Shown here: positions 39,531 to 64,000 of the stretch, piece by piece
Layout: every line of letters starts with the position of its first letter
Numbering within the stretch: position 1 is the stretch's first letter
Source of the DNA: Candidatus Aenigmatarchaeota archaeon
GTDB lineage: Archaea; Thermoplasmatota; Thermoplasmata; Halarchaeoplasmatales; Halarchaeoplasmataceae
Reading direction: 5' to 3'
DNA length: 64,000 nt
NCBI GenBank assembly: GCA_046537845.1
Contig: JBKHKA010000004.1
Span: 24,586 to 88,585, forward strand
Translations under genes and position numbers: made by a program
Notes under the pieces: model-generated
Told to the model about the DNA's origin: nothing
Seen by the model: the letters and a program-made list of their open reading frames with translations, nothing else
The model's database searches: none

Positions 39531-39632
39531 TAACGGCTGATCCTTGAATGGGCTCACTAGGTTAATTAATATTTGAACTCGAGGAGAACCATCACTTTAT
39601 CCTCTTCACCAATCTTAAATAATTGTAATCTA

Positions 39633-39656: not shown

Positions 39657-39678
39657 GATAGTTAAAGGAGAGATATAC

Positions 39679-40857: not shown

Positions 40858-40897
40858 AGATTGAATACAAAATGGAATAGAAAAAGAGGTAGATAAA

Positions 40898-41749: not shown

Positions 41750-41750
41750 G

Positions 41751-43948: not shown

Positions 43949-43949
43949 T

Positions 43950-46375: not shown

Positions 46376-47348
46376 AGACAAGAAAACCATAGGATTTTAC
46401 TGGTGCGCATCTTGTGGCGGGTGCGAGATCAGTGTGTTAGATATAGACGAGATGATCTTGGACGTGGTCGAGAAGGCCGACATCAAATTTTGGCCGTGTG
46501 CCATGGATCCAAAATATGATGACGTAAGAGCCATGAACGACGATGAGTTCGATTTCATATTCATAAACGGCTCCATACGCTCCGAGGAGAACGAGGAGAT
46601 GGTAAAACTGCTGCGGAAGAAAGCCAAAAACGTGGTGGCTTACGGCTCCTGTTCCAGTATTGGCGGATTGTTCGGTTTGGGTAATCTTCACAGCAGTCAG
46701 GAACTGCTTGATAAAGGCTACAATACTAGATCTACTGACGAAGGTCCGATGCCTAAAAAAGTAAGTAAAGTTGAAGAAGGGGAATTGGAACTTCCAGAAT
46801 TGACACTTCATGTGACTCCACTAGAGGACGTCATAGAGGTCGATTATTATATCCCCGGATGTCCTCCCCTGCCGGTCCAACTTGAGGAGGCGTTCCCGGC
46901 GCTTTTGGACGACGATACCGAAGTGGGGAAATACGATTTCATCTCGGAAAAGAGCGTATGCGACGAGTGCCCCATGGAGAGAGAAGAGAAGAATATAGAG
47001 AGGTTGATCCCGATACAGGAGAAAATGGACATCGACCCGGTGGAATGTTTGCTGGACCAGGGTGTCCTATGCATGGGTCCCGCTTCGGCAGGTATGTGTG
47101 AAGCTGCCTGCCCCTCGGTTGGTCATCCCTGCATCGGCTGTAACGGACCTACAAGAGAAGTTGCGGACCAGGGAGGAAGGATGGCTTCGGCCTTGGCGTC
47201 CGTGATCGCTATCGAGGGAGAAGAGAGAAAGACGGAAGAGGATATCAGAGATGCGATGGAGAGTGTGAGAGATCCGACTGGATCGTTCTATAGATTCAGT
47301 CTTCCGACCAGCATCTTGAGATATAAAAGAGGGGATACCGATGAGTGA
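46368..47348 (+). CDS. mvhG: F420-non-reducing [NiFe] hydrogenase small subunit
   Basis: FYWCASCGGCEISVLD is the proximal Fe-S cluster motif of NiFe hydrogenase small subunits. Confidence 0.85.
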   Translation: MSEDKKTIGFYWCASCGGCEISVLDIDEMILDVVEKADIKFWPCAMDPKYDDVRAMNDDEFDFIFINGSIRSEENEEMVKLLRKKAKNVVAYGSCSSIGGLFGLGNLHSSQELLDKGYNTRSTDEGPMPKKVSKVEEGELELPELTLHVTPLEDVIEVDYYIPGCPPLPVQLEEAFPALLDDDTEVGKYDFISEKSVCDECPMEREEKNIERLIPIQEKMDIDPVECLLDQGVLCMGPASAGMCEAACPSVGHPCIGCNGPTREVADQGGRMASALASVIAIEGEERKTEEDIRDAMESVRDPTGSFYRFSLPTSILRYKRGDTDE

Positions 47349-48801
47349 AAAGAAGAAGATATCCATAGATCCTATAACGAGGTTAGAAGGCCACGGTAAG
47401 ATAGAGATATTTTTGGATGATGAGAAAGAAGTGGAGAACGCCTATCTTCAGGTACCGGAGTTCAAGGGCTTTGAAAAGTTCTGTCAGGGAAGAAGGGCAG
47501 AGGACATGCCCACCATAACTAGCAGGATATGTGGTGTATGTCCGGTAGCCCATCATCTTGCTTCGACAAAAGCTTTAGATGCTGCCTATAACGTAGAACC
47601 GCCCGAGCCGGCGGAGAAACTGAGAGAACTCTTCTATAACGGCTATATCTATGCGGATCATCTTTTACACTTCTACTATCTAGCCAGTCCCGATTTCCTG
47701 GTCGGCACGGACGCCCCGAAAGAAGCGAGGAACATATTGGGGGTTATAGAGGAAGTTGGAGTCGATATAGGAAAGAAGGTCATCAAACAGAGGGGCAAGG
47801 GTCAGGAGATCATCCGCATGCTGGGGGGAAAGGCGGTACATCCGAGCTTCGGTGTCCCCGGTGGCGTGGTGAAATCACTAGATAACGAAGAGAGAGAGGA
47901 ACTGATAGAGTTGTCCGACGATATGGTCGATTTTGCAGAGTTCACTCTTGACCTGTTCAAAGATGAAGTGCTGAGTGAGTTTGAAGAGCCGATAAAAGAA
48001 GATCGTTTGGAGACCTATAGCATGGGTCTGACCGAGGACGGAGAACTCAGCCATACCGGAGGTATCGTGAATGTGGTGACCCCGGATGGTGAAGATCTTA
48101 CCGATTTCTCTGGCGAAGATTATCTTGACGTTATCAGAGAACATAAGGAATCCTGGAGTTATATGAAATTCCCGTATCTGAAAGAGGTGGGATGGGAAGG
48201 ATTCGTGGATGGTGAAGATTCAGGTGTGTACCGTGTCGGCCCGTTGGGCAGAGTGAACGCATCCGAGGGCATGAAAACTGAGAAGGCCCAGGAAGGATAT
48301 GAAGAACTCTTCGAAATGTTGGGATATCCGGTCCACTCGACATTGGCTTACCACTGGGCCAGGTTGATAGAGGTCCTTCAAGCCGCTGAGTTGGTTCAGA
48401 AATTGGCACACGACGAGGACCTGGAAAGCGATAACATCCGGAACGAGCCCGGGGAACCGGGAAAGGGTGTAGGTATCGTGGAAGCGGCGAGAGGGACGCT
48501 GATCCACGATTACGAATTGGACGAAGATGGATTGGTTAAAGATCTCAATCTTATTGTAGCTACCACCCACAATGCGGCACCTATATCGATGAGTATCAGA
48601 GATGCTGCCAAAAAGTATATCGACGCAGGAGATGTTCAAGAAGGGATGCTCAACAGCGTCGAGAGAGCTTTCAGGGCTTACGATCCGTGCCTGGCCTGTG
48701 CTACACACTCCGCGATGGGAGAGACGCCCTTGAAGGTCAATATCTATGACAAGGACGGAAAAAATTTGAAGGAGGTCACCCAGGGGATAGGTGAAAGCTA
48801 G
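47341..48801 (+). CDS. mvhA: F420-non-reducing [NiFe] hydrogenase large subunit
   Basis: The N-terminal RICGVCPVAHHLAS and the C-terminal DPCLACATH are NiFe-ligating CxxC pairs. A roughly 30-aa C-terminal tail after His suggests maturation-protease processing. Confidence 0.9.
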   Translation: MSEKKKISIDPITRLEGHGKIEIFLDDEKEVENAYLQVPEFKGFEKFCQGRRAEDMPTITSRICGVCPVAHHLASTKALDAAYNVEPPEPAEKLRELFYNGYIYADHLLHFYYLASPDFLVGTDAPKEARNILGVIEEVGVDIGKKVIKQRGKGQEIIRMLGGKAVHPSFGVPGGVVKSLDNEEREELIELSDDMVDFAEFTLDLFKDEVLSEFEEPIKEDRLETYSMGLTEDGELSHTGGIVNVVTPDGEDLTDFSGEDYLDVIREHKESWSYMKFPYLKEVGWEGFVDGEDSGVYRVGPLGRVNASEGMKTEKAQEGYEELFEMLGYPVHSTLAYHWARLIEVLQAAELVQKLAHDEDLESDNIRNEPGEPGKGVGIVEAARGTLIHDYELDEDGLVKDLNLIVATTHNAAPISMSIRDAAKKYIDAGDVQEGMLNSVERAFRAYDPCLACATHSAMGETPLKVNIYDKDGKNLKEVTQGIGES

Positions 48802-48995
48802 AATAGGTAGTATATATTTAAATCATGAACAAGTGATGGGGACATTTCGAAAGATGGTCTGTGCACCCCTATTCAAGTAGATTCTATCAAATCGAAGAGT
48901 TTAAATCTATCTTTCATAATTTGAAAGCGGTTTTACATAAAAAAACAAATTGGATTAGTTGGGTAAAACTTGGAAGAACAAAAAAGGTGAAAAAA

Positions 48996-50891
48996 ATGGA
49001 TGAATATGAGAAAGTATATGAAGAATCATTAGAGAACCCTAGATCATTTTGGGCAGACGCGGCTGAAGATATAGAATGGGATGAAAAATGGGATCACGTT
49101 TTAGATGAGTCTAACAAACCGTTCTATAGGTGGTTTTCAGGAGGAAAGCTCAATACCTGTTATAATGCAGTCGATTATCATATCAAAGATGGCAGAGGTG
49201 ATCAAGATGCTATCATATATGATAGCCCAGTAACAGATACGATAGAGAAATATTCCTTCGAAGAGTTGAAAGAGCGGGTTTCAAAGATCGCGGGATTCCT
49301 GAGAGAACTCGGGGTCGAGAAGGGCGATACGGTAGTTATCTACATGCCCATGATACCCGAGTCTCTAATGGCCATGTTAGCGTGCGCACGGATAGGCGCC
49401 GTTCATTCCGTCGTGTTCGGCGGTTTTGCATCCAATGAACTGGCGATCAGAGTGGATGATGCCGAACCCGACGTTATACTTTCTGCATCATGCGGGATCG
49501 AACGGGACGAGGTCATAGAGTACAAACCTCTTCTTGACGAGGCGATAGAACTGGCGGAGAACAAGCCCACGAAGTGCGTTATCAAGCAGAGACCCGAGTA
49601 CGAAGGCGAACTTATCGAGGGGAGAGACTATGATTGGGACGAGCTGGAAGAAGAGGCCGAACCCGCAGACTGCGTCTCTGTAGGTGCTAATGATCCTCTT
49701 TATGTGTTGTATACTTCTGGAACCACGGGTAAGCCCAAGGGAGTCGTCAGAGATAATGGCGGACACGCCGTGGCATTGAAATGGTCTATGAGAAATGTTT
49801 ATGGGGTAGAACCCGGAGACGTTTACTGGGCCGCTTCAGATGTCGGCTGGGTCGTGGGTCATTCTTATATCGTCTATGCACCGCTCTTGATCGGCGCTAC
49901 CACGGTCATGTACGAAGGTAAACCTGTTGGAACTCCTGATCCAGGTGCGTTTTGGCGGGTCATCTCTCAGCATGACGTCGACGTGTTGTTCACAGCTCCT
50001 ACAGCCATCAGGGCTATAAAAAGAGAGGATCCAGAGGCGGAGTACTTTGAAGATTACGATGTTTCCGGTTTGGATTCGCTCTTCCTAGCGGGTGAAAGGA
50101 CCGATCCCGATACCTATCATTGGGTTTCCGATCTGCTGCAAGTCCCGGTTATCGACCACTGGTGGCAGACGGAGACAGGGTGGCCAATCGTAGGGAACTT
50201 CAGAGGATTAGAGCAGTTCCCGATCAAACCGGGTTCGGCGACCAAACCTATGCCCGGATATGACCTTCAAATATTGGATCCCCAGACTGGAGAGGAGTTA
50301 CCTCCTGGCGAGACCGGAGTGATCGCGATCAAGCTTCCTTTACCACTAGGGAACTTCATCACTTTGTGGAATAACGATGAGAAGTTCAAGCAGGAATATA
50401 TGGATCCCTTCCCGGGCTATTATTTCACCGGCGACGCAGGCTTCGTCGACGAGGATGGCTATGTGTCCATCATGGGGCGGGTAGATAACGTCATCAATGT
50501 AGCTGGACATAGACTCTCTACCGGCAGTATGGAAGAAGCAGTCGCGAAGCATGATGCGGTAGCGGAGTGTGCAGTGGTAGGTATCAATGACGAGTTGAAG
50601 GGTGAAGTGCCCCTTGGCTTCCTGGTATTGAAGTCGGGTGTCGATCAAGATCATGAGGAAATAAAATCGGAAGTTATACAGATGGTCAGGGATGAAGTGG
50701 GTCCAATTGCGTCTTTCAAGAAGGTGCTGATCGTCGACGAGCTGCCAAAGACACGATCTGGTAAGACGCTGAGAGGGACCATGAAGAAGATAGCCGACGG
50801 TGAAGATTACTCCGTACCTTCAACTATCGCGGACGAGGGAGCTTTAGATACTATAGAAGAGGCGATAGAGGAAGAAGGGGTAGAAAAGTAA
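48996..50891 (+). CDS. prpE: Propionate--CoA ligase / acetyl-CoA synthetase family (PrpE-like)
   Basis: YTSGTTGKPKGVVRDNGGHAVAL resembles the PrpE variant of the ACS motif. The ATG at 48996 follows AAAAAGGTGA. The ORF-track frame starts upstream at 48861. Confidence 0.8.
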   Translation: MDEYEKVYEESLENPRSFWADAAEDIEWDEKWDHVLDESNKPFYRWFSGGKLNTCYNAVDYHIKDGRGDQDAIIYDSPVTDTIEKYSFEELKERVSKIAGFLRELGVEKGDTVVIYMPMIPESLMAMLACARIGAVHSVVFGGFASNELAIRVDDAEPDVILSASCGIERDEVIEYKPLLDEAIELAENKPTKCVIKQRPEYEGELIEGRDYDWDELEEEAEPADCVSVGANDPLYVLYTSGTTGKPKGVVRDNGGHAVALKWSMRNVYGVEPGDVYWAASDVGWVVGHSYIVYAPLLIGATTVMYEGKPVGTPDPGAFWRVISQHDVDVLFTAPTAIRAIKREDPEAEYFEDYDVSGLDSLFLAGERTDPDTYHWVSDLLQVPVIDHWWQTETGWPIVGNFRGLEQFPIKPGSATKPMPGYDLQILDPQTGEELPPGETGVIAIKLPLPLGNFITLWNNDEKFKQEYMDPFPGYYFTGDAGFVDEDGYVSIMGRVDNVINVAGHRLSTGSMEEAVAKHDAVAECAVVGINDELKGEVPLGFLVLKSGVDQDHEEIKSEVIQMVRDEVGPIASFKKVLIVDELPKTRSGKTLRGTMKKIADGEDYSVPSTIADEGALDTIEEAIEEEGVEK

Positions 50892-50892
50892 T

Positions 50893-50920
50893 CTTCGAGC
50901 GCCCCTTCGAGCGCTTTTCA
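50893..50920 (+). terminator. Hairpin (AGCGC-cccttcga-GCGCT) followed by a TTTT run, directly after the prpE stop
   Basis: TTCGAGCGCCCCTTCGAGCGCTTTTC. Archaeal termination commonly occurs at T-runs. Confidence 0.3.
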
Positions 50921-51098
50921 ATTGGATCACACATATCATCATTACATACTCGGTAGACCGAGATAAAAGTGTGATGTCTTCCGTAAAGTCTTCACTTCCT
51001 GTAGTGTCAAGTTCGTCACTTGGAAGACCTGATCTGTCCAGGTATGGAGATCCATTGCGAACAGCAAAATAAAAATAAGAGAAATATATTGGCCCTTT

Positions 51099-51713
51099 AT
51101 GGATGAAAAAGATCAGCTCGAGCCTCGTACGATAATCAAGAAACCGCCGCCCAAGATAGCTGATCCCGCTTGTTTGGGTTTGATCGGTCTTGCCATAGCT
51201 GCTTTGGTACTAGCTTTTACAGACCTAGGTTTTGCCTCGAGCAAAATGGAATCCCTGATTATCCCTTGGACTCTGTTTCTAGGAGCTACGGCCCAGTTGG
51301 TAGCTGGAATAATGGATTTTAAGAGAGATAACATATTTGGAGCTACTGCATTCACAACATATTCTATGCTCTGGTATTCTGTTTCACTCACGTTGTTCAT
51401 AACTATATTCACGTCCATCGATTTTGATCTCACGCATTATGCGCACGGGCTGCTAGGATTTTTGATCTTCAGTATCATATTGACAGGCGCCTCGTTGATG
51501 ACGAATAAAACTCTCCTGGCAGTCCTTATATCTATCGACGTCGCCATTCTGGCTCTCGTCTCTCATATCTTGGTCGGTACAGGAGCGGTTCCTGTGGGTG
51601 TTTCGCTTCTTTTTGTCTCGATATTCTCTTTCTACGGAGCCGCCGGAGTGCTGCTCAACAATATGGCGGAAAAGGAGATATTGCCTTTAGGGGAACCTCT
51701 CTGGGAGCCATAG
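51099..51713 (+). CDS. satP: GPR1/FUN34/YaaH (SatP) family acetate/succinate channel
   Basis: ADPACLGLIGLAIAAL resembles the NPAPLGLxGF signature. It has six TM helices. Length is 204 aa. Confidence 0.7.
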   Translation: MDEKDQLEPRTIIKKPPPKIADPACLGLIGLAIAALVLAFTDLGFASSKMESLIIPWTLFLGATAQLVAGIMDFKRDNIFGATAFTTYSMLWYSVSLTLFITIFTSIDFDLTHYAHGLLGFLIFSIILTGASLMTNKTLLAVLISIDVAILALVSHILVGTGAVPVGVSLLFVSIFSFYGAAGVLLNNMAEKEILPLGEPLWEP

Positions 51714-51751
51714 ACCGTTAAGGGTTGGAAAAGGGGTCAAAAGTTTCGGAT

Positions 51752-52915
51752 TCATATGACCCCACGATCCTCCAATCTTTCTATTTCCTCCTCGGTGTAA
51801 CCCGCATCATTCAGTATCTCTCGCGTATGTTCACCTTTTTGAGGAGGCGGTGTTCTGAATTCATCAATATCCTTCTTTGATCTAGCGGGAAATCCTATCT
51901 GATCGATCTCCATCCCAGAGAAGTCCAATGAACCGATCAGATCTCTCTCTTCGACATGTTGACTTTCGAAGACTTCTTTCAAATTATTTACAGGAGATAT
52001 CATCACTTCGTTTTCTTTTGATATCTTCTTCCATTCCTCGAAAGTTTTCTTCTTGAATTCTTCCTCGATTATCTTTCTGATCCTTTCCTTCTTCTCGGAA
52101 AACTGCTGGTCTTTAAATTCTTCTCTCCCTATCAATTCACAAAAATTCTTCCAATATTTTTCTTCATAGGCAGCTAGGGCGAAGTATCGCCCGTCCTTTG
52201 TCTCATAGATATCATAAAAGGGATATCTTCCCGTCAATTCTGTCTCTCTCGCTCGCGGGACTTCCTCCTCCAAGAGAGGCTGCCAGGCGATGCCCGTGGA
52301 GAACGAAATCAGACAATCCAAGATGGAGATGTCTATATACTCTCCCCTGGAGTCATTGAGTTCTCTATCAAGGAGTGCGTTGATTATGGAAAAGGCGGAA
52401 AAGAGTCCCGCGGTCATCACCGATATGGGAAAGCCAGGGATCGCAGGTTTACCATCCTTCGACCTGGTGATATCGATAAGGCCTCCTTCGGAAGCATAAT
52501 TTAGATCGTGGCCGCCTTTATCCTTTAGTGGACCGGTCTGGCCATAACTGGATAAAGAGCAGTAGATTATATCCGAGTTGACCTCTCTCACCGAGTCGTA
52601 ATCCACCTTCAGTTTTTCGACGACGCCGGGACGGAACTGTTCAAAGACCACGTCGGCGTCTTCGGCGAGGTTCATGAATATCTCTTTACCTTCTTCTTTT
52701 TTAAGATCGATCTCAATTGCCTTTTTATTCCTGTTCAGCATCAAGAATGGGGCTCCTTCTCCCCCGATGGAAGGTTCCATGTCTCTAGCATAGTCTCCTG
52801 TTTCTGGGTCCTCTATCTTTATAACTTCCGCTCCCAGGTCGGCCAAAAGCATTGTAGCGTAGGGACCAGGGATCAATCTAGTCATGTCCAAGATCTTGAT
52901 TCCCTCTAATCTCAT
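51752..52915 (-). CDS. Family III CoA-transferase (CaiB/BaiF/Frc family)
   Basis: The N-terminus MRLEGIKILDMTRLIPGPYATMLLADLGAEVIKIE is diagnostic of CoA-transferase family III. Confidence 0.85.
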   Translation of the reverse strand: MRLEGIKILDMTRLIPGPYATMLLADLGAEVIKIEDPETGDYARDMEPSIGGEGAPFLMLNRNKKAIEIDLKKEEGKEIFMNLAEDADVVFEQFRPGVVEKLKVDYDSVREVNSDIIYCSLSSYGQTGPLKDKGGHDLNYASEGGLIDITRSKDGKPAIPGFPISVMTAGLFSAFSIINALLDRELNDSRGEYIDISILDCLISFSTGIAWQPLLEEEVPRARETELTGRYPFYDIYETKDGRYFALAAYEEKYWKNFCELIGREEFKDQQFSEKKERIRKIIEEEFKKKTFEEWKKISKENEVMISPVNNLKEVFESQHVEERDLIGSLDFSGMEIDQIGFPARSKKDIDEFRTPPPQKGEHTREILNDAGYTEEEIERLEDRGVI

Positions 52916-52956
52916 GTTCTCGATCGTTTATAGGATGAGAGCCTTTTATAGATTAC

Positions 52957-52967
52957 TACCACCTATG
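52957..52967 (+). promoter_or_regulatory. Second copy of the TACCACCTATG box, in the divergent spacer between the CoA-transferase (-) and the phasin-like genes (+)
   Basis: It is an exact 11-nt match to 39633..39643. Confidence 0.3.
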
Positions 52968-53114
52968 TATAAGACTGTCCATCGATGGCTATAAAACTAC
53001 GGCTCAATCATAGTCTTTGTATCATAACGCAAGCGGATATATAAAAAAGTTTATAAAGCTTATGGGACATATTATACTTTGAGTACCTTTAGAAGAGGGA
53101 AGAGGAGAGATAAT

Positions 53115-54326
53115 ATGAAGCAAGAAAAAGACCCTATAGAGAAGTACGTATCTGCGTACGAAGAAGCTAACGACGACGAAGAGTGCAAGAAAAAAGTGGC
53201 CAACAGACTGCTAAAAGACGAGTTGATCGAAGTAGCCGGAGAGAACGGATTAGATGTCAGTAAAAATCAGACCAAAGATGAGATAGCAGAGAAGCTGATA
53301 AAACCGGAAGTCTACAATCAGATAGTCAGCGAAAGAGAAATTTCCCAGGAGGTAGGGGAAAAGAAAGAAGGAATTGAAGGCGAACTTACTCCCCCAGAGC
53401 CGCCTGAGGTCAAAACAGAGGTCCTCGAACCCTTATCGGACCTAATATCCGATTCAACCTTGAAAGGATCCGAAAAGGTTAACGAGTTATGGATAGACGG
53501 GATGAAAGGGATCGAAGAGAACTTGGAAGGAGTAACGGAACAGAACCTCGAATACTGGGAGGAACTTGAAGATGAATGGATGGAAAAGGCAACTGAATTC
53601 CAGGAACAGATCGACGAACTAAGAGAGAGATCCGTCCTGCCAGAGGACAAGACGAAAGAACTATCGGTGATATGGAGGAACTTCTTCAATAAGATGATGG
53701 CCAGAGTGAAAAAGGCAAATCAGCGTACAAGGGAAAGGCATGAATCTTTAACTCAGCTCGTAGAAAAACATACGGAAAAAGCAAGAGAGACCTTCGATGA
53801 AGAGAGCGAGAGTATAGATACGGGGAAACTACTTGGTCTTTGGTCGGATTTTTCAAAAGATTTGGGAAGCGAGTTAGAGAAGACATTGGATAACTATAGG
53901 AGAGATTACGAGGCAGTAGAAGAGACATGGAAAAATTTTGCCGATAAGACAGAGGATCTCATCGACGATCTCCAAGAAAGTCAAGAGGAACAGGTAGAAG
54001 AACTCTATGAAATGTGGAATTCAAATTTTGAGTTCGTACAAGATAACGTGGAAAAAGGGTTTGAAGATTATATGGATGCCTATGAAATCACGAGAGAGGA
54101 ATTCGAAAGACATAGCCGGAAGGTGACAGAATCTCTTTTTGAATTGGCGGAGAACGTAGAAGAAAATTATTCCAGGTTGATGGAGAGCTACCAGAAAACC
54201 TTAGACGAAGGGTACAGCGGTATGTTTTCCATGGCAAACCCATTAGTTCCAAAAAAGGATGAAAAAGAGTTGGAACGACTCAAAGAAAGAGTGGAAAAAT
54301 TAGAAAAGAAAATAGAGGAGGATTGA
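53115..54326 (+). CDS. Phasin-like acidic coiled-coil protein A, with an N-terminal SAP/Rho_N-like helix-hairpin motif
   Basis: The ATG at 53115 follows GGGAAGAGGAGAG. The ORF-track frame starts at 53079. The motif LLKDELIEVAGENGLDVSKNQTKDEIAEKLI is present. It has repeated E[ED]LYxxW blocks (VEELYEMWNSNF). Confidence 0.6.
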   Translation: MKQEKDPIEKYVSAYEEANDDEECKKKVANRLLKDELIEVAGENGLDVSKNQTKDEIAEKLIKPEVYNQIVSEREISQEVGEKKEGIEGELTPPEPPEVKTEVLEPLSDLISDSTLKGSEKVNELWIDGMKGIEENLEGVTEQNLEYWEELEDEWMEKATEFQEQIDELRERSVLPEDKTKELSVIWRNFFNKMMARVKKANQRTRERHESLTQLVEKHTEKARETFDEESESIDTGKLLGLWSDFSKDLGSELEKTLDNYRRDYEAVEETWKNFADKTEDLIDDLQESQEEQVEELYEMWNSNFEFVQDNVEKGFEDYMDAYEITREEFERHSRKVTESLFELAENVEENYSRLMESYQKTLDEGYSGMFSMANPLVPKKDEKELERLKERVEKLEKKIEED

Positions 54327-54331
54327 GAATA

Positions 54332-55171
54332 ATGGACGAAAAAAACCGAGGAGATAGAAATCTGTTCAGATCCATGGATTATCTTTCCAGCATGGATTTC
54401 AGTGGATTCACAAGAGAATTCGTAGATCAACAGGAAAGGTACATGACCGACGTAGACCAACTGTTAAACCAGTCTTCAGAATTTGGTAAGGACGTGAGGA
54501 AAGTGGTCGAAGAGACCAATGATCAGTATGAAGAACTGATGGACCTGTGGTCCGATCTTTCCGACATGTCCGAAGAATTGGTCGAGAAGAACGTTAAGGA
54601 AGGATTTCAAGAGGATATCCAAGAGTATAACAGGGAGGTTGGTGAGAAGCTGAAAGAACTGGTCAAATCCAGTTATCAAGATGCTGAAGAACTCTATTCG
54701 GCGTGGACAAAGATGTCCGATAGCATTTTCAAGGGCATCAAAGCTGGAACGGGTCCGGATCCTGAGGAGATAACCGAGGCGACGGCAGATTTCCAGGAAG
54801 CTGCTCTTCATATAGCAAAAAGAAACATAGAGGAAAACAACGAATCATTGAGAGAGCTGAGAGAGACACTCGAAGAGATCGCAGAAGAGAGTTCGAACCG
54901 GTTGAAAGAGAACGCTGAATCTAGCGGAGAAGGGTACGAAAAGATGGTGAAGGGCTGGCTTAATACCATCGACGAGATGGAAAGCAAGACTGATAGTTAT
55001 TTAGAGGACCTGAGGGAGAGCTACCTTTCAGCATTCAAACCGTATTTTGGAAGGGGATGGATCTTTCCCTTGTTCCCTTGGCAGCCATCTAGGAAGATGA
55101 GTGAATACGAAAGCGATATAGAGGACCTGAAGAAAAAGATCGAAGAGCTAAAAACTAAGGTGGAGGAATAA
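54332..55171 (+). CDS. Phasin-like acidic coiled-coil protein B (paralog of A)
   Basis: YEELMDLWSDL and AEELYSAWTKM are repeat blocks. The ATG at 54332 follows GAGGAGG. The C-terminus is coiled-coil (EDLKKKIEELKTKVEE). Confidence 0.6.
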   Translation: MDEKNRGDRNLFRSMDYLSSMDFSGFTREFVDQQERYMTDVDQLLNQSSEFGKDVRKVVEETNDQYEELMDLWSDLSDMSEELVEKNVKEGFQEDIQEYNREVGEKLKELVKSSYQDAEELYSAWTKMSDSIFKGIKAGTGPDPEEITEATADFQEAALHIAKRNIEENNESLRELRETLEEIAEESSNRLKENAESSGEGYEKMVKGWLNTIDEMESKTDSYLEDLRESYLSAFKPYFGRGWIFPLFPWQPSRKMSEYESDIEDLKKKIEELKTKVEE

Positions 55172-55204
55172 AACCTCCATCTTTATTTTTTGAGGTAGAT
55201 AACC

Positions 55205-56050
55205 ATGGATAGAGATATTGATATGGAAGATTATTATAAAGAGTTGAGAGAAGATATGCTGACGGTCTGGGAAGATTTTTCTTCTGAGATGGAAGATTTT
55301 CTGGGAGAATTACAGGAGGAAAACGTTGAAGCTTACGAGGAGATGTACGAGGAATGGAAGGACTTCAGCGAACAGATGATGAATCAGAAGAAAAATTTTG
55401 GAGACATCGAGAACTACGTTTCTCTCGCAGATCTTTTTCAACGGTGGGTAAGAGCTTCAAAGGACTTCAGAAATGTAGTCCAGGAAAAGAGCGGAGAAGA
55501 TATCCCCGTCGCTGATTTCGATAATATCTTCTCGGAGTATATGGAAAACCTGAGACTTCTGTTAGGTGAGACCATCGAACTCGGGATGGAACGACAGAGA
55601 AAGGAACAGGAAGATCTTTATGACCTGTGGATGGACGCTTGGTCTAGTCTGGGTGAAGAAGAAGGAGAAAGCATCCCGGACGTGGTCAAGGACGTTCAAA
55701 GTGAATGGATAAAGTCCTCAACCGACCTTTTAAAGATGTGGTCGGAAAGTTTAGAGGAAGGTCAAGCCGAGGACCTTTTCCAGAAAACACAGAAAGAGAT
55801 GCTCAAAAACGCCTCGAACAGCATGGAAGAACTCTTGAGCTCCGAGCCTTATGCTATGTTCCAGGGCAGCTATCTAGATAACTTGCTTGATACGAAGATC
55901 ACGCAGAAGGAACTGCTGAACACCTATCTCGAATCCTTTGGGGTCCCCACTCGGGACGATATACTGAAAGTATACGAATCTATCCACGAGCTGACCTCTA
56001 GAATCAGAGATCTGGAGAGAAGAGTAGACGAGCTCTCAGTAGAGAAGTGA
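55205..56050 (+). CDS. phaE: PhaE-like subunit of class III PHA synthase (paralogous to the phasin-like proteins)
   Basis: It lies directly upstream of phaC. It has EEMYEEWKDF and EDLYDLWMDAW blocks. The C-terminal FGVPTRDDILKVYESIHELTSRIRDLERRVDEL resembles the conserved PhaE C-terminal box. Confidence 0.5.
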   Translation: MDRDIDMEDYYKELREDMLTVWEDFSSEMEDFLGELQEENVEAYEEMYEEWKDFSEQMMNQKKNFGDIENYVSLADLFQRWVRASKDFRNVVQEKSGEDIPVADFDNIFSEYMENLRLLLGETIELGMERQRKEQEDLYDLWMDAWSSLGEEEGESIPDVVKDVQSEWIKSSTDLLKMWSESLEEGQAEDLFQKTQKEMLKNASNSMEELLSSEPYAMFQGSYLDNLLDTKITQKELLNTYLESFGVPTRDDILKVYESIHELTSRIRDLERRVDELSVEK

Positions 56051-56068
56051 ACAGGTGGGGGATATTAT

Positions 56069-57337
56069 ATGAACGAAAATCCTGATCTCACTGATCTACC
56101 GTCCCAAAAATGGATGGAAGGACAGATACAATACATGAAAGACCTTACAAAGAACGTAAAGAAGTTGAATGATGCTCTTGAACTCCTAGCTTCTCAACCC
56201 GAGGTGGAAGTCGGTCAAACTCCAGCTGAAGTGATCTGGGAAGGTGATCTCGCAGAACTTTTACATTTTAAGCAGGAGAACGTGGAGCAAAAACCGCCGG
56301 TACTTTTGGTCTACGCTTTGATTAACGAGGAGTACATATTGGACCTTCAACCGGGCAGGTCGGTCGTAGAATCGTTGTTGAACGAAGGATTAGACGTGTA
56401 CATGATCAATTGGTACAAGCCGGATAAACGTCATCGGTTTGAAACTTTGAACGATTACGTGAATTATTTTATGGACGTCTGCGTGGACAAAGTCAGGAAG
56501 AAAAGGAACAGGGATTCGATCAATATCCTGGGATACTGTATGGGAGGCACGATGTCTTCGATGTATGCCGCTTTATACCCGGAGAAAGTCAAGAGCTTGA
56601 CTTTGATGGCCGCTGGATTGGATTTCGAGGAGGATGAAGGATTATTGAGTCATTGGGCGAACTCCGATTATTTCGACCCAGAAAAAGTGGTCGAGGCCTT
56701 TGGTACCTGTCCTGGAGATTTCCTGGACGGGGCATACCTTGCTTTAGCACCGGTCAATAACACCGTGGGAAAACTTTTGAATCTGGCAGATAACGCTGAA
56801 GACGAGGAATTCGTCAAGATGTTCTTCAGGATGGAAAAATGGATACACGACAGTAAGGATATACCGGGACCAGCTTTCTCAAAATTCGTAGGAGATCTCT
56901 ACCAAAAAAACAAGCTCATAAAAAATGAATTCCATATCGGAGGTGAACATGTAGATATTAACAATATCACCATGCCCCTGCTAACTATTATCGGAGAGTA
57001 CGATACCTTGGTACCTCCAGAAAGCAGTCTTCCCTTCAAAGATAAGGTTCCGAGTGAGAAGACCGAGGTGATGAAAGCGCCGGTAGGTCACATAGGACTC
57101 TCTGTGAGTTCCAAGGTTCATCCGGATTTATGGGGGAAAGCCGCCGAGTGGATAAAAGAGCACGATAGAATCCCATTGAAGAGCATCAAAGGCATCGGCG
57201 AAAAAACGGCGGAAAAATTGAAAGAAGCTTCGGTTAAAGATGGAACAGACCTGAAGCGAGCGGATACAGAAGAATTGTCTGAAAAGACAGGCATCTCTGA
57301 AAATAGGATCGAAAAATGGAAAAAGAGGGCAGAGTGA
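56069..57337 (+). CDS. phaC: Class III poly(3-hydroxyalkanoate) synthase catalytic subunit PhaC with a C-terminal (HhH)2-like extension
   Basis: The alpha/beta hydrolase has the lipase-box GYCMGG (catalytic Cys). Downstream are Asp (GEYDTLV) and His (VGHIGL). The C-terminus is SIKGIGEKTAEKLKEASVKDGTDLKRADTEELSEKTGISENRIEKW. Confidence 0.85.
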   Translation: MNENPDLTDLPSQKWMEGQIQYMKDLTKNVKKLNDALELLASQPEVEVGQTPAEVIWEGDLAELLHFKQENVEQKPPVLLVYALINEEYILDLQPGRSVVESLLNEGLDVYMINWYKPDKRHRFETLNDYVNYFMDVCVDKVRKKRNRDSINILGYCMGGTMSSMYAALYPEKVKSLTLMAAGLDFEEDEGLLSHWANSDYFDPEKVVEAFGTCPGDFLDGAYLALAPVNNTVGKLLNLADNAEDEEFVKMFFRMEKWIHDSKDIPGPAFSKFVGDLYQKNKLIKNEFHIGGEHVDINNITMPLLTIIGEYDTLVPPESSLPFKDKVPSEKTEVMKAPVGHIGLSVSSKVHPDLWGKAAEWIKEHDRIPLKSIKGIGEKTAEKLKEASVKDGTDLKRADTEELSEKTGISENRIEKWKKRAE

Positions 57338-57341
57338 TAAG

Positions 57342-58112
57342 ATGGTTGGTGACAGCGAACCCTACAGGGACCGATTCAAAGACAGGAATGCCCTAGTGAC
57401 CGGAGCATCAAGAGGAATCGGAAAAAAAATTACGAACACACTAGCAGAGTACGGCGCGGATGTGGTCGTCAATTACAACACGAGCCACGAAGAAGCGAGC
57501 GAAACAGCCACGACCGTAGAGTTGGCTGGCGAAGATAGTTGGGTCTATCCGGCAGATATCAGCTCTTTTAAAGAAGTCGAAGAGATGAAAGAAAACATTG
57601 AAGAGAATTTTGGAAAGATAGATATACTGGTGAATAACGCTGGTATAAACAAAGATAAGTTCTTTGCTAAGATGGAAAAAGACGATTGGGAAAAAGTTTT
57701 GTCTGTGAACCTTGACGGAGTTTTCAACTGCTCCAAGATATTTTTAGATGATCTAAGGAGATCCGAATCGGGAAGGATAGTGAACATTTCTTCGGTTGTA
57801 GGCCAAAGGGGTAACCAAGGACAGGTCAATTACGCCTCATCCAAGGCAGGCATTATAGGATTCACCAAGGCGTTAGCGAGAGAGTTGGTGAGAGATGACG
57901 TAACTGTTAACGCTGTTGCCCCGGGATTCATCGCTACGGAGATGGTATTGAACATGCCAGAAAAAATCCAGGAGAAGATAAAAAGTGATATACCCATGGG
58001 ACGCTTTGGAGACCCGAAAGAGGTGGCCGAGACGGTAGCGTTCCTTGCCTCTTCGGATGCATCTTACATCACAGGGGAAGTTTTAAAAGTCAACGGTGGT
58101 TTCTACATCTGA
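57342..58112 (+). CDS. phaB1: SDR family acetoacetyl-CoA reductase / 3-oxoacyl reductase (PhaB/FabG-like) 1
   Basis: ALVTGASRGIGKKI matches TGxxxGIG. NNAG and the YASSKAG YxxxK catalytic motif are present. Confidence 0.8.
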   Translation: MVGDSEPYRDRFKDRNALVTGASRGIGKKITNTLAEYGADVVVNYNTSHEEASETATTVELAGEDSWVYPADISSFKEVEEMKENIEENFGKIDILVNNAGINKDKFFAKMEKDDWEKVLSVNLDGVFNCSKIFLDDLRRSESGRIVNISSVVGQRGNQGQVNYASSKAGIIGFTKALARELVRDDVTVNAVAPGFIATEMVLNMPEKIQEKIKSDIPMGRFGDPKEVAETVAFLASSDASYITGEVLKVNGGFYI

Positions 58113-58134
58113 ATCTATCGAAAGAGGGATACAT

Positions 58135-58965
58135 ATGAAAAGCGATGAAGACCAACAGTTAAAGCTAAAATCATATTTTGAAAACGACGACATAGAAAAC
58201 CTAGATCCCAGCAGTAACCGTTTGGAGGGATTGAATGCACTCGTAACAGGCGGAGGACAGGGCATCGGCAGAAGGATATCACTAGAGTTCGCAAACGAGG
58301 GGGCTAACGTGGCTATAAACGACTTGAGCTCGCAGAAAGATAAGGCGGATAGGGTAGCCCAATATATAGAAGGAGAATTGAACAAAAATACATGGATAGC
58401 CGAAGGAGACGTTTCGGACTTGGACGATATGAAAAAGGTCAAGGAGCAGGTAGAGGAAAATCTAGGTAAGATTGACATATTGGTGAATAATGCTGGGATC
58501 AATAGAGATTCTTTATTCATAAAGATGGACAAAGAAGAGTGGGATCAGGTCTTATCGGTGAATCTTGATGGGGCTTTCAACACCACTCATGTGTTTCTAG
58601 ATCATCTCCGAGAGTCCGATCAGGGCAGGATAATCAATATGTCCTCTGTTGTAGGAGAAACTGGAAATATCGGTCAGGTGAATTACGCCTCCTCAAAAGC
58701 CGGATTGATAGGGTTCACTAAAGCTCTAGCTAGAGAGTTGGTGAGGGATGAAGTCACCGTCAATGCTGTAGCTCCGGGTTTCGTGGATACCCTGATGGTA
58801 AAAAATATGCCTGAGAAAGTCAAGAAGAAAATCCTCGATCAAATACCGATGGGGCGTTTTGCGGAGCCCAAAGAAGTGGCGAAGGTCTTCTGCTTTTTAG
58901 CATCAGAAAAAAGCTCGTACATCACCGGAGAGGTGATAAGGATGAACGGAGGTTTTTACCTATAA
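58135..58965 (+). CDS. phaB2: SDR family acetoacetyl-CoA reductase (PhaB/FabG-like) 2, a paralog of the preceding gene
   Basis: ALVTGGGQGIGRRI, NNAG and YASSKAG are present. The ATG at 58135 follows AGAGGGA. The ORF-track frame begins at 58096, overlapping the phaB1 stop. Confidence 0.8.
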   Translation: MKSDEDQQLKLKSYFENDDIENLDPSSNRLEGLNALVTGGGQGIGRRISLEFANEGANVAINDLSSQKDKADRVAQYIEGELNKNTWIAEGDVSDLDDMKKVKEQVEENLGKIDILVNNAGINRDSLFIKMDKEEWDQVLSVNLDGAFNTTHVFLDHLRESDQGRIINMSSVVGETGNIGQVNYASSKAGLIGFTKALARELVRDEVTVNAVAPGFVDTLMVKNMPEKVKKKILDQIPMGRFAEPKEVAKVFCFLASEKSSYITGEVIRMNGGFYL

Positions 58966-59295
58966 CCACTTAGAGGATCAAAAAACAAGAGGGATGACCG
59001 ACCGAAGGGGGGTCAAATACCCACAGCTTTCGAGGAATTTTTGAAAATTCCTTTGTATCACGAAGAGTTATTCTGAGTGAGAAGAGGAATTCATTTCCTC
59101 TGTATTGCTGGAATCATATTCCACCTATCTCTAGAAATCCTAGGGATTTCAAGAAATTTGCTGGAAAATCTTATTTCCCATCAATTGATGGAATCTCTGA
59201 TTCTAGACAATATCACAGGAAAGCTAACTTTCCTGTTAGTTTCGGCTGTGGGAAAGGATCATCAAACGTAGAAACCCAAAATTTTTGCACACTTC

Positions 59296-59903
59296 CAAAA
59301 AACTCTATAGAAAGATCTCTGTCCAAAGCGGTGGAAAAAGACAAGCTGTCCGCTGAAAAGTAAGAAAAAATCCTCTCCAAGATCGAAACGACCCTTGATA
59401 TAGAGGACCTCCAGGATTGTGACGGTGTGATCGGAGCGGTCAACGGCTACGCCCTCGGAGGCGGTCTTGAATTGGCCTTGAGTACTGACTTTTTGATAGC
59501 CTCTGAAGCGGCTAAATTCGGTCAACCAGAGGTCGGTTTAGGAGTGATACCCGGTTTCGGCGGCACCTTTTTACTAGCCCGGCAGATCGGACCTGCACGA
59601 GCTAAGGAATTGATTTTTACAGGTAAAAGGATAGATGCCGAAGAGGCAAAGGATATAGGGATAGTCAATCATACCGTTGAAAAGGAAGAACTGATGAACG
59701 AAGCCCAGGAGATCGCCCAAAATATAGCCGATAATTCCCCTGTTGCTTTGGACCATGCTAAAAGAGCCATAGAGCATGGAACGGATCATTCGAAGAAAGA
59801 GGCACTCCTGCAGGAAAGCGCTAACTTCAAGGAGTGTTTTGAGAGCGAAGACCAAAAAGAAGGTATGGAAGCTTTCCTAGAAAAGAGAGAACCCGACTTT
59901 TGA
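59296..59903 (+). pseudogene. Fused remnant of a second hbd-crt pair: HADH residues about 47-85 with an in-frame TAA, joined directly to the C-terminal two-thirds of an enoyl-CoA hydratase
   Basis: I translated it by hand: RSLSKAVEKDKLSAEK*EKILSKIETTLDIEDLQDCD|GVIGAVNGYALGGGLELALSTDFLIASEAAKFGQPEVGLGVIPGFGGT...EAFLEKREPDF. Compare hbd (40898) [38 protein letters not shown], and crt (41751) [33 protein letters not shown]...EAFIEKREAKF. Confidence 0.75.
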
Positions 59904-60083: not shown

Positions 60084-63000
60084 GTATGAGTTTAAATGAG
60101 AGTAAATCAAGGATAGCCCTGGTAGGGCTTACAGTCTGTATTTTGATCGCTGCCGGTTTTGGAAGTACATTTATGGGCAGCGCCGAAGGACCGACAACAT
60201 CGTCGGATGGGATCGGTGTTGAGGAGAAAGGTCCTATTGAGAAGGTGCGTGAAGTAGAAAGCACAGAGTCCGTTCAAGACAGAAAAAATAAGTACATTTC
60301 TACCGACATGAGAGATGCTGCTGAAGAAGAAAACTTATCCCTTAAGTTCGATCAAAGCTATGAGAACGGTTCTATCGCCGCTACCAGCGTATATGAACCG
60401 GATCCTTATGGCACCGATGATCCAGAGTTACTCGATATGGAAGCAGCCGAGAACTTCTGGAGTGCGTCAGGGACCATAAGAAAGATCGGAGTTTACGGTC
60501 TAGCCTTATATTGGGATTATGAAGCTGAAGAATGGCGTGAAGAGACCCCCGACCTTTATGAGCCCTTCGATGTACGATTTTATGAGGGTGCCGGACCCAA
60601 CGCTGGGGAACCGGATTGGGACAACCCCGATAAAGAATGGAATCTCGATGGAGAGAGATTCGTTGAAGATGATGATTGGCACTGGGAAACCGCCGATGTC
60701 CTATACAGGTACGAGATCGAGCTGCCTGAACCACTCACTTGGGACGAAGGCTGGGTATCGGTCCAGATGGACAACGAGGAGAGTGTAACTAACTCCTGGA
60801 TACTATGGATGGAATCACCGGGTGAAGGCGACGGCCAGGGTTGGCAGCGGGCTAGAAAGATAGAAGGAGGCGAGGGTTCTACAACATACGACCAACTATC
60901 GTACGACCTAGCCTTTGAGTTATGGGGAGATGAAATAAGAACTGAACCCGCGGCGGCCTTGGACCTGAACAATGCAACCTTGAAAGGAAACCTTACCGGC
61001 TTAGCCGAAGGCGATGAAGCGGATGTATTTTTCAGATACAGAAGAGCTGGAGACACCGAATGGTCTGAAACTCCACCGGTGACCAAAAGTGATCCGGGTA
61101 CTTTCACTGAGAACTTGACCGATCTCTCGCCTATGCAGGAATACGAGTTCCAAGCGGTAGGTGAAGTTGAAGGAGTCGAATTCACTGGAGATATACTTTC
61201 ATTCACACCCGCTACTGTTTCTTCTACGACGCAGCTCGAAGAAGAATGGAAAAATTATGAAGAGATGAACTCGCTAAAAACCGTCGAAGACGACCTCGCT
61301 CTAGATGCGGTAGAAGTGGGCAGCGAAACATTCAATTTCACTGGCGAAAAGGAAACCGTCGATGTATCGGGATACTCCCAAATGAAAGTCGAGATGTGGG
61401 GTGCCGGAGGCGGTGGTGAAGACGGCGATGATTACTATGCCGGCGGCGATGGGGGTTATGTTGAAGCCCTGCTGAACGTCTCCGAATTTGATGAGCTCGA
61501 TATCTGGGTGGGAGAAGGTGGAGGATACGGCGGTCCAGGCGGTTGGGGCCGCCACAACGGTGGAGACGGCGATACCAATACTGGGGGAGGCGGCGGCTCT
61601 ACGGAGATAGTGGCCGACGACGGTACGTTTTTAGCCGCAGCTGATGCTGGAGGAGGAGCAGGCTATTTAGGGTGGATTATTGATTATGAAGGTGGGGGGG
61701 GAGCCCGAGGCGGCGAAGGTTACAACGACGGCGAAGGTGAAGGCCGCGGCGGTGACGGCGGTATAGGCGGTTCAGACGGAGCTCCTGGAAGCGGCGAGAT
61801 CAATTTCGACCTGCTGTTGGATGAAGCAGAGATAACAAGAGGAGATGGATCCAGCGGCGGCCTCGGCGGAGATGGCAGCGACGGGTTGATATCTACCACT
61901 TATTATGCGAACGAATACGAAGGAGAGCGCATTTCCGAGCCTATATCACTCGACGAGATCGAGAGCGTAGGAGATAATGTCATAGATTGGACTGAAGAAA
62001 TTCAGGAAGGTACCAACGTTACCGTCTATACGGGAATATCTGGCGACAGCGAAGCACTTCCTGAAACTTGGGATCATGCGGAAAAAGGTGAACCGATCCC
62101 GAGCATAGACGAGGGTGAAGACCTCACGGGCCGGTACCTGTGGACAAGACAAGTATTGACCACTACCGATGCTTCAGTCACTCCCCGTCTGTCCGATCTG
62201 AGGATTGGAATAATAGACGGATTAGAGACCCTGAATCTCGAAGTGAGATCAGAAAAAGGCGGCACAACGGATCCCGCCCCAGGAAATTATACCTATATGG
62301 TTGGTGATGAGGTCACCGTACAGGCCCTTCCGGACGACGGTTGGATATTCGACAACTGGACGGGAGATGTATCACAAGGCGAAGAAGACCAAGACGAGAT
62401 AACCATGACGATGGATACAAACAAGGAAGTAACCGCCCACTTTTTAAAAGAAGCAACCTTCGAGGTAGAGATCCTCTCGCCTGAAGACGGCGATAGGTTC
62501 ATCGAGAATGAAAGCGTAGAGGTGGAATACCGGGTGAACAATACAGGGGACTTCAACGATACGCAGACGATAGCATTAGAAGTAGATGATGAACAGATAG
62601 ATACTAATGAAGTCACCCTTGAAAGCGGTGAGAGCTATACCGACACGTTCACTTGGGAGCCTAGTGAGAATTTCATAGGTGAGAATAACGTGTTCGTGAG
62701 CAGCGATGATGATCAGGATAACATCTCCGTTACCGTGTTAGAGGAAGGTATATTCTATACTGAGATAATCGACTCTGATGAAGAAGTAGTAGAGGGAGAG
62801 TCAGCTAGTGTGACGAGCGAGATAACCAATACAGGTAATGAGGAAGTGACTCAGGATGTATCCTTTGTGGTTTATGATCAGGACGATGTCGTTTACGAAG
62901 ATACAGAGACCGTAACACTTCAAGGTGAAGAGACCTCCGTTGAGGCCTTTACCTGGCAGACAGAGGAAGGAGAAGCTGGAGAGTATGAAACCGTAGTGGC

Positions 63001-64000
63001 GAGTGAGGGATCTGAAGATAGAGTCAATCTAACGGTCCTAGAAGACGCCTATTTTGATCTAGATATAGTAGACTTTGACGAAGAAGTGCTCGAGGGCGAT
63101 ACCGCCTATGTGAATTTCACGGTCATGAACACGGGAGAAGTAGAGGGTACAAAGGATGTCGAAATAAGTATTTATGATGAAAATGGAGAGAGCGTCGTAG
63201 AAGAACATCTTGAGATAACTCTAACGGCTGGAGAAGAAAAAGAAGTATCCTTTCCATGGGAGACCGAAGAAGGAGACGCTGGCAATTATGATGCGGTGAT
63301 ATCGAGTGAAGATGCCGAGCAAAGCGTTGAGATGGTGGTCCTACCTCAGATTTATTTCGAAGTAGAGATGATCGATTACGAGGATAATATCGTTGAAGGT
63401 GATGATCTCGAAGTGACCGTAGAAGTAGAAAATACGGGCGTGGTAGAGGCTACCCAGGACATAAAGCTTTTAGATTTCAACGGAGATGTAGCGGATGTAG
63501 AAGGGGACGTGGAGCTAGGGCCAGGAGAATCTACAGAAATAACCTTGACCTGGCAGATCGAAGAAGGAGATGAAGGAACCGATGAGATAACGGTGGCTAG
63601 CGAAGACGAAACGGTCAGTCAACAGGTAACGATAGAAACTAGAAGTCCTCATTTTGAAGTGGAAGTAACCGATCACGATGAAGAAGCGGTCGAAGGAGAA
63701 GAGCTCCTTGTCAATTATACGGTCACCAATACTGGAAATGTAGAAGACACTCAGACAATAGAGGTGAGTTTAGACGGCGCATTAGAAGATAGTGAGGAAG
63801 TCACACTGGGTCCTGGTGAAGATCATGACGGTGAGTTCAGCTGGCAGACGGAAGAAGGCGATGCAGGAGAGTACGATATCGTGGTAGCCAGCGAGGACGA
63901 GGAAGCGGAGATCACAGTTACCGTGATGGAGCCCGCATTTTTCGAGGTCGAAATAGAGGATTACGACGAAGAAGTGGTCGAAGGAGAAGAGATCGTGATA
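60084..64000 (+). CDS. Very large secreted/cell-surface protein (more than 1305 aa, 3' end beyond the window): signal/TM anchor, glycine-rich domain, divergent InlB-B-repeat-like domain and tandem CARDB-like repeats
   Basis: I translated it by hand from the ATG at 60084 (preceded by GGAGGT) and found no stop through 64000. The N-terminus RIALVGLTVCILIAAGF is hydrophobic. The Gly-rich block is MWGAGGGGEDGDDYYAGGDGGYVEA...VGEGGGYGGPGG. The protein is extremely acidic. Confidence 0.8.
62446..64000 (+). repeat. About six tandem coding repeats with a period near 300 nt (about 100 aa), CARDB-like domains
   Basis: The units begin near 62446, 62738, 63038, 63341, 63641 and 63926. The shared pattern is FEVE..D.DEEVVEGE...V.V.NTG.VE.TQD..V.L.......V.L..GE.....F.WQTEEGDAGEYD.VVASED. 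Confidence 0.7.

Follow-up and report, generated by a model that had tools for sequence, protein, structure and literature searches.

The closest described relatives of the locus reported here are the crotonases of the ECH_1 family (PF00378), such as Crt of Clostridium acetobutylicum (PDB 5Z7R), and the 3-hydroxybutyryl- and 3-hydroxyacyl-coenzyme A (CoA) dehydrogenases, which combine a 3HCDH_N (PF02737) with a 3HCDH (PF00725) domain. The locus lies in a 64,000-nucleotide (nt) stretch of contig JBKHKA010000004.1, which is called the window throughout and in whose coordinates all positions are given. It is a relic in which a piece of an hbd gene, encoding a 3-hydroxyacyl-CoA dehydrogenase, is joined head to tail and in one frame to a piece of a crt gene, encoding an enoyl-CoA hydratase (crotonase). 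The relic is located between the stop codon of phaB2 (58965) and a long gene beginning at 60086. Its open reading frame (ORF) is identical to that of a public protein (P0001) that carries the source name Candidatus Natronoplasma sp. The genus Ca. Natronoplasma belongs to the order Ca. Haloplasmatales of the Thermoplasmatota, halophiles known from metagenome-assembled genomes (MAGs; PMC11332174; PMC11287216).

The relic resembles a crotonase in having the FGQPE motif, the glutamate of AKELIFTG and the C-terminal helices. The nearest solved structure is 5Z7R, residues 101-254 of which align with residues 2-155 of the ORF (E 7e-48). It differs in lacking the native start and the first ~95-100 residues, GADIKEM among them, and is a fragment rather than a functional member of the family. 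Its 42 hbd-derived codons match the NAD-binding domain of 3-hydroxyacyl-CoA dehydrogenases, but they include a stop codon and lack the GxGxxG start of the Rossmann fold, the catalytic part and the entire C-terminal domain. In gene order, the closest system is the thl-hbd-crt operon of Haloplasmatales MAGs (L003, L006, L008, and L025) that we call A-type; A-type and W-type are names given here to two Crt clades, the latter including the Crt of the intact hbd-crt pair resident in the window, 18 kb upstream of the relic. The relic shares with the A-type operon its Crt clade, gene order, orientation and chromosomal slot. It lacks the thiolase gene (thl), 85% of hbd and 37% of crt, and its slot also holds a 29 kb block and a 4.7 kb gene. 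Microhomology-mediated deletions that form fused prokaryotic pseudogenes are comparable in that the junction of the relic lies in a ~15-nt similar stretch, with the DNA between lost; the comparison differs in that the microhomology of the relic is read from orthologs and not from the actual parent, and replication slippage and recombination are indistinguishable from sequence. Very probably, the relic is what remains, without function, of the ancestral A-type thl-hbd-crt operon of this lineage, and it has kept the operon's original place on the chromosome. It represents ordinary reductive genome decay, with a neat junction, in an archaeon of salt lakes and will not surprise the specialist.

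Structure of the relic and its junction

An initial annotation of this DNA had described an hbd-crt fusion interrupted by a stop codon, and this observation was confirmed (Table 1). The frame containing position 59202 reads ...NSIERSLSKAVEKDKLSAEK, a stop, EKILSKIETTLDIEDLQDCD, a single glycine and then VIGAVNGYALGGG...EAFLEKREPDF, followed by a stop. Translation from 59427 to 59903 gives VIGAVNGYALGGG...FGQPEVGLG...AKELIFTG...EAFLEKREPDF, and the sole start codon of this 158-codon ORF is the GTG at 59427, which was made by the junction. In tblastn searches, the relic was matched by residues 36-90 of the resident Hbd (40898-41749) at 56% identity (E 2e-14) and by residues 96-253 of the resident Crt (41751-42521) at 61% identity (E 1e-62). 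Pfam analysis of the conceptual fusion detected 3HCDH_N over profile positions 36-86 of 180 (E 3.5e-6, passing the curated cut-off) and ECH_1 over positions 83-248 of 251 (E 1.4e-48); the 158-codon ORF alone covered ECH_1 positions 92-248 of 251. These analyses bore out that the hbd piece passes directly into the crt piece at ...DCD, and that the Rossmann N-terminus of hbd, the remainder of hbd and the N-terminal third of crt (the first ~95 codons) are absent. The in-frame stop reported for the hbd piece was seen both in translation and in alignments. The hbd piece itself is real, although clear homology begins slightly downstream of the start first given (59296, for Hbd residues 47-85), and at 56% identity it is far from "nearly identical" to the resident Hbd. 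With a 5' truncation, an internal deletion of 888 nt and a premature TAA, the relic carries lesions typical of a pseudogene and, as had been proposed, is the scar of a second hbd-crt pair.

Table 1. Coordinates of the relic, its parts and the flanking features of the slot in the window
Feature	Position	Strand	Description and evidence
AMP-binding acyl-CoA ligase gene	28569..30254	-	84% amino acid identity to the L025 gene; left anchor of the slot
Block replacing thl and the 5' end of hbd	30451..58965	.	~29 kb; Pfam; synteny with L028, L032, and L012
Resident intact W-type hbd-crt pair	40898..42521	+	Pfam; separate clade; paralog of the relic, not its parent
Spacer from the phaB2 stop to the hbd homology	58966..59300	+	Non-coding, 335 nt; 5' breakpoint marking the loss of thl and hbd codons 1-43
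hbd-derived segment	59301..59423	+	~Codons 44-85 of a 283-286 amino acid 3-hydroxyacyl-CoA dehydrogenase; ends ...EDLQDCD
Nonsense codon TAA	59361..59363	+	In frame, within the hbd segment; translation and alignments
Deletion junction GGT GTG ATC GGA GCG GTC	59424..59441	+	Codon-by-codon comparison with hbd and crt of L025, L003, L006, and L008
crt-derived segment	59427..59903	+	~Codons 94-253 and the native TGA stop; 158 codons open
T/C polymorphism	59615	+	Synonymous ATT/ATC (Ile), inside the crt segment
Surface-protein gene, 5' 3.9 kb	60086..64000	+	1573 amino acids, CARDB/Flg_new_2 (Pfam); ends ~807 nt past the window

The codons at the junction indicate how the two pieces were joined. The relic reads GAT TGT GAC GGT GTG ATC GGA GCG GTC AAC, the hbd gene of L025 reads GAT TGC GAT GTT GTG ATA GAA GCG GTA (D-C-D-V-V-I-E-A-V) and the crt gene of L008 reads CCG GTG ATC GGA GCC GTA AAC (P-V-I-G-A-V-N). 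Because the GGT of the relic is one change away from the GTT of hbd and the next five codons are compatible with either parent, the crossover is placed within ~15 nt that are alike in both genes (V-I-x-A-V). In L025 coordinates the internal loss amounts to 888 nt and the frame was preserved because this number is a multiple of three. Intact genes have a Lys/Glu codon where the relic has TAA, and one substitution therefore suffices to explain it. The junction carries the signature expected of a short-homology deletion, a process that we infer from these comparisons, and the 888-nt loss and the shared stretch agree with the original proposal that the fusion arose by internal deletion. The locus provides a clean, textbook-style example of an in-frame deletion across short microhomology.

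The same stop and junction were present in three other assemblies of the species and are therefore not artefacts, which answers the concern that either might be an assembly error. GCA_048620515.1 and Logan SRR21542051 cover the whole feature, and the match to GCA_048622275.1 reaches 59454. The assemblies differed from the window at positions 53380, 57065, and 59615 only. Downstream of the feature, two other assemblies of this species have contigs that stop at 60041 and 60066, and the neighboring contig L037 begins at 60012. The resulting 55-nt overlap (60012-60066) resembles a fork in the assembly graph; it lies shortly before the start of the surface-protein gene, in which the strains may differ.

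Upstream of the hbd piece, a lenient tblastn search with A-type and W-type thiolases and Hbd found no trace of a thiolase or of the hbd N-terminus in the spacer (best E 0.2-0.6). No second copy of the spacer was present in the rest of the window and no repeated or mobile element was found in it. An Rfam scan of 58800-60200 returned nothing credible, and neither the spacer nor the DNA downstream of the relic was found after phaB2 in relatives by tblastx or blastn. The base composition around the relic was ordinary, with no island signature. Between 59035 and 59202 the spacer contains a series of short GGAAT/ATTCC palindromes, for example GAATTTTTGAAAATTCC at 59035-59051, with others at 59079-59100, 59104-59128, 59127-59157, and 59167-59202; they had no Rfam match and occur in single copy in the window.

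Chromosomal slot and paralog clade

In four related lineages (L003, L006, L008, and L025), an A-type crt is the last gene of an operon set in a conserved arrangement: a gene for an AMP-binding ligase of 561 amino acids on the minus strand, thl-hbd-crt on the plus strand, with a thiolase of 432-434 amino acids, and the ribosomal genes P1-L10-L1 on the minus strand. The thiolase gene is missing from L006, where hbd directly follows the ligase gene, and a MatE gene lies between crt and P1 in L008. On the left side of the relic, window positions 19393-30254 are collinear with L025 1-7668 (64-87% amino acid identity), with genes for a helix-turn-helix (HTH) regulator, HMG-CoA synthase, an archaeal thiolase, a DUF35 protein, a nitroreductase, an S9 peptidase (minus strand) and the AMP ligase (minus strand) in the same order. 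The right side was recovered from contig L037, which was found by way of a same-species L1 gene (P0242) and is 100% identical to window positions 60012-64000. Beyond the window, this contig carries P1-L10-L1-x584-transglutaminase on the opposite strand, in the same order as the genes after crt in L025; amino acid identity to L025 is 77-89% for the ribosomal genes and 49-58% for x584 and the transglutaminase. The 4.7 kb surface-protein gene separates the relic from P1-L10-L1. The relic is thus flanked by the two anchors of the slot, the AMP ligase on the left and P1-L10-L1 on the right. Since it occupies the conserved place of the A-type operon, it is an orthologous remnant of that old paralogous operon, left where the operon originally stood. 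When the intergenic DNA flanking the surface-protein gene was aligned locally with the crt-P1 spacer of L025, a plausible match was confined to the P1-proximal part and was too weak to define an insertion point.

The crt part of the relic also grouped with the A-type enzymes. The full-length proteins closest to it were P0002-P0010, A-type Crt of related archaea, at 65-70% identity, compared with 61% for the resident Crt. A neighbor-joining (NJ) tree of 158 shared columns contained two clades, with the relic in the A-type and the resident Crt in the W-type clade. The relic fell within the A clade, taken as a clade with at least 13 of the 15 A-type and no W-type sequences, in 197 of 200 bootstraps and joined the resident Crt first in 3 of 200. 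Profile hidden Markov models (HMMs) scored the relic at 263.6 bits for A and 240.2 bits for W; this margin of 23 bits for A is similar to that of the basal A members P0010, P0003, and P0002, and every W member scored higher with the W profile, by at least 57 bits. Signatures shared with the A-type include AVNGY (not AVNGF) and GPA(K/R)AKELIFTGKRIDAE. The C-terminus, EAFLEKREPDF followed by the stop, is that of the A-type, and the W-type extension is absent. At the DNA level, the relic and the resident crt had a single match of 20 nt, at the AVNG(Y/F)ALGG codons, and the resident pair had its own orthologs at 82-91% identity (L028, P0019, P0026, P0027, P0029, and P0030), the value for the resident Crt against the five P-numbered proteins being 82-86%. 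The hbd piece was 48-59% identical to A-type Hbd, with 53-57% in tblastn, and 56-59% identical to the resident Hbd. The marks of an A-type remnant were thus found in the Crt clade, in the left flank, with the 29 kb block between, and in the right flank, with one 4.7 kb gene between.

The slot was found in other states in other relatives. In L012 and L032, whose PhaB2 and L1 are 76 and 83% identical to those of the window lineage, P1-L10-L1 follows phaB2 after 75-78 bp and no trace of hbd or crt is present. The block directly follows the ligase gene in L028, where L1 is on the same contig; the proteins of the shared cluster are mostly 81-98% identical, with lower values for CobO (45%), MvhG (68%), and MeaB (70%). 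The polyhydroxyalkanoate (PHA) cassette that ends the block in the window is located elsewhere in L016 and L033-L036, followed by a MiaB-like gene, and is followed in L015 by a putative deacetylase-like ORF. These states mark the slot as a place of repeated rearrangement and the PHA cassette as a 6 kb unit that can move. Genes have repeatedly been gained and lost in the slot, with the operon wholly lost in some relatives and MatE in place of the surface-protein gene in another. For the history of the genome, the relic is a positional marker, which places the 29 kb block with its PHA cassette in the slot of the simple thl-hbd-crt operon of the relatives.

Four lesions can be recognized in this genome. 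A ~29 kb block, which holds the PHA cassette as well as a complete second acd-etf-thl-hbd-crt-hdr-mvh cluster, separates the ligase gene from the relic, and neither thl nor hbd codons 1-43 remain. The 888-nt in-frame deletion joined hbd codon ~85 to crt codon ~94 within the V-I-x-A-V microhomology, one codon of the hbd piece mutated to TAA, and the surface-protein gene was inserted between crt and P1. The paralogous W-type operon may have made the A-type operon dispensable. The block probably arrived first, upstream of an intact operon, with the deletions coming later, partial here and complete in the lineage of L012 and L032; this order fits the absence of excess amino acid change in the crt part.

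Coding capacity of the crt piece and alternative explanations

The crt part retained all 21 of the columns that are invariant among 66 intact homologs and 44 of the 45 columns conserved at 95% or more, which is as good as a typical intact member, and its 158 codons contain no frameshift. Tajima relative-rate tests with five A-type sequences and three outgroups detected no excess change on the branch of the relic. The nearest intact orthologs are 30-35% diverged in protein, a distance at which synonymous sites are expected to be saturated, and because the crt part shows no excess change the deletions seem to be recent relative to this divergence. The hbd piece has the stop and a change in one of nine invariant columns, too few sites to serve as a neutral control for the crt piece. 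"Decayed" is too strong a word for the crt part, in which no invariant residue has changed.

The complete ~250-residue spiral core of a functional crotonase is not present, as the N-terminal ~95 residues are gone. With them went the GADIKEM segment, which was found in all intact homologs aligned. From the structures of rat ECH and Crt, we take the GADIKEM region of the N-terminal third to be the first oxyanion-hole and CoA-binding segment. The FGQPE motif, with the second oxyanion-hole Gly and the catalytic Glu, and the second catalytic Glu in AKELIFTG are both intact. The GxGxxG start, the catalytic core and the C-terminal 3HCDH domain of a functional 3-hydroxyacyl-CoA dehydrogenase are all missing. 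Since the first oxyanion-hole and CoA-binding segment was lost, the 158-codon ORF is, judging from its sequence, almost certainly an annotation artefact rather than a working hydratase. The public GenBank record (P0001, 158 amino acids), called by the Prokaryotic Genome Annotation Pipeline (PGAP), names it "enoyl-CoA hydratase/isomerase family protein" and not a pseudogene. Metabolic reconstructions of Ca. Natronoplasma would consequently include a second crotonase that is almost certainly non-functional.

In the initial annotation, the resident hbd-crt pair (40898-42521) was taken to have been duplicated locally, with later decay of the copy and its fusion by deletion. Both pieces do have homology to the resident genes, whose order and orientation they share, and the hbd piece is equally similar to the resident and the A-type Hbd. 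The crt part, however, is closer to the A-type Crt of other genomes than to the resident enzyme in identity, in bootstrap frequency and in HMM score, and its only DNA match to the resident crt is 20 nt long. The relic moreover sits in the A-type slot with both flanks conserved, and the resident pair has orthologs of its own in relatives. Duplication of the resident pair is already disfavored on these grounds and very unlikely; of the duplication and reductive decay that the region had been said to record, ordinary reductive decay stands and no evidence for a local duplication was found here. A foreign hbd-crt fragment, transferred horizontally with the PHA cassette or the surface-protein gene, would suit this region, which is mobile in that its PHA cassette occurs in differing contexts among relatives, and more distant Thermoplasmata have an ECH gene after phaC, in L020 together with a thl-hbd-crt set. 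Such an origin is nonetheless highly improbable: the phaC-adjacent ECH genes form a distant outgroup at ~44% identity, the nearest Crt relatives are chromosomal and in the same slot, including that of L025 with the left-flank order of the window, the slot flanks are conserved on both sides of the relic, and the base composition is unremarkable. A chimeric join or wrong stop, introduced by assembly or sequencing, is conceivable a priori, and breaks in MAG contigs do occur 110-160 nt past the feature. These breaks (60012-60066) lie outside it, and the sequence across stop and junction is the same in GCA_048620515.1, Logan SRR21542051, and GCA_048622275.1, which makes an artefact scarcely credible.

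A further alternative concerns function rather than origin. The 158-codon ORF could be live, a truncated crotonase C-terminal module under selection and expressed from a fortuitous promoter, perhaps as a partner of full-length Crt trimers or as a PHA-associated protein. Its frame is open to the native stop, its conserved columns are kept, its rate is not accelerated, its sole polymorphism within the species is synonymous, PGAP calls a protein and a TATA-like octamer lies upstream of the GTG. We consider a live ORF unlikely, as about 95 N-terminal residues of the fold are gone, including the GADIKEM oxyanion-hole and CoA segment, the GTG start is itself a product of the deletion junction, the in-frame hbd piece just upstream has a stop and a single nucleotide polymorphism carries no statistical weight. 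Furthermore, no similarly truncated homolog was detected among the best 120 of 7884 proteins at E <=1e-20, except one cut by a contig end, and two degenerate patterns for the fusion junction had zero matches in Joint Genome Institute (JGI) metagenome contigs. In its strongest form, the proposal would be an accidental stand-alone "half-crotonase" of 158 residues, expressed and selected, with the catalytic glutamates and trimerization helices and without the N-terminal CoA-binding part. Such a protein is decidedly unlikely and keeps a small probability because the frame is intact, the invariant residues are kept, the rate is not accelerated and the polymorphism is synonymous only. If it existed, it might join or poison the resident Crt trimers and so shift flux between beta-oxidation and PHA synthesis, the genes for the latter being its neighbors. 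The TATA-box-like octamer, TTGATATA at 59395-59402, lies ~25 nt upstream of the GTG at 59427 and derives from Asp-Ile codons of the hbd piece; by coincidence, it could act as the promoter of a leaderless transcript from the truncated crt ORF.

Several points weigh against the interpretation of the relic as a non-functional remnant of the A-type operon. Continued selection on the ORF would likewise leave the conserved residues fully retained, the frame open and the polymorphism synonymous only. The NJ tree rests on just 158 columns, and the hbd piece, 53-59% identical to both types, is too short and too variable to be assigned to A or W by itself. Intact hbd-crt genes downstream of phaB, which the relic could have led one to expect in relatives, were not found among the contexts examined: phaB2 was followed by P1-L10-L1 (L012 and L032), a MiaB-like gene (L016 and L033-L036) or a deacetylase-like ORF (L015), and in no case was it combined with an intact thl-hbd-crt. 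Finally, we infer the order of events and have not observed it.

The 29 kb block and neighboring genes

The block begins with genes for MBL, a B12-binding protein, MeaB, MCM (methylmalonyl-CoA mutase), CobO, and a hexapeptide transferase, continues with acd-etfBA-thl-hbd-crt-hdrCBA-mvhGA followed by ACS, YaaH, and a CoA-transferase, and ends with two phasin-like genes, phaE, phaC, phaB1, and phaB2. The relic comes next, in the expected orientation. That the relic directly follows the PHA genes was correctly noted at the outset, but the suggestion that it was once dedicated to the PHA pathway has no support; the four intact A-type operons adjoin acyl-CoA ligase and ribosomal genes and have no PHA genes nearby.

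The PHA cassette (53079-58965) encodes two acidic phasin-like proteins (415 and 282 amino acids), PhaE, a class III PhaC with a helix-hairpin-helix (HHH_5) domain at its C-terminus, and a tandem pair of PhaB paralogs. This 6 kb unit was found in at least three genomic contexts in relatives (L012/L032, L016/L033-L036, and L015). In the more distant Thermoplasmata (L017-L024), an enoyl-CoA hydratase gene directly follows phaC and its product is ~44% identical to A-type Crt. In L020 (5288-10368) the order is phaC-ech-thl-hbd-crt; ECH and PHA genes are thus linked elsewhere in the phylum, although the ECH there belongs to another lineage.

The middle of the block (36629-48801) is an unbroken acd-etfB-etfA-thiolase-hbd-crt-hdrC-hdrB-hdrA-(flpD)-mvhG-mvhA cluster, which joins a butyryl-CoA dehydrogenase/Etf set to an Hdr/Mvh-type hydrogenase module. 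L028 also has this cluster, mostly at 81-95% amino acid identity, with MvhG at 68%. The B12-binding/MeaB/MCM/CobO segment at 31749-35722 is inverted relative to L028 506-4145, and CobO is only 45% identical between the two, its neighbors being 70-88% identical. The MBL gene (30451-31389) had no match in the stretch of L028 examined. To the left of the slot, a gene of the AAA_16/TPR (STAND) type for 1057 amino acids with an N-terminal HTH (25373-28546) lies between the S9 peptidase and AMP-ligase genes. The latter two are adjacent in L025, which makes the STAND-type gene a lineage-specific insertion.

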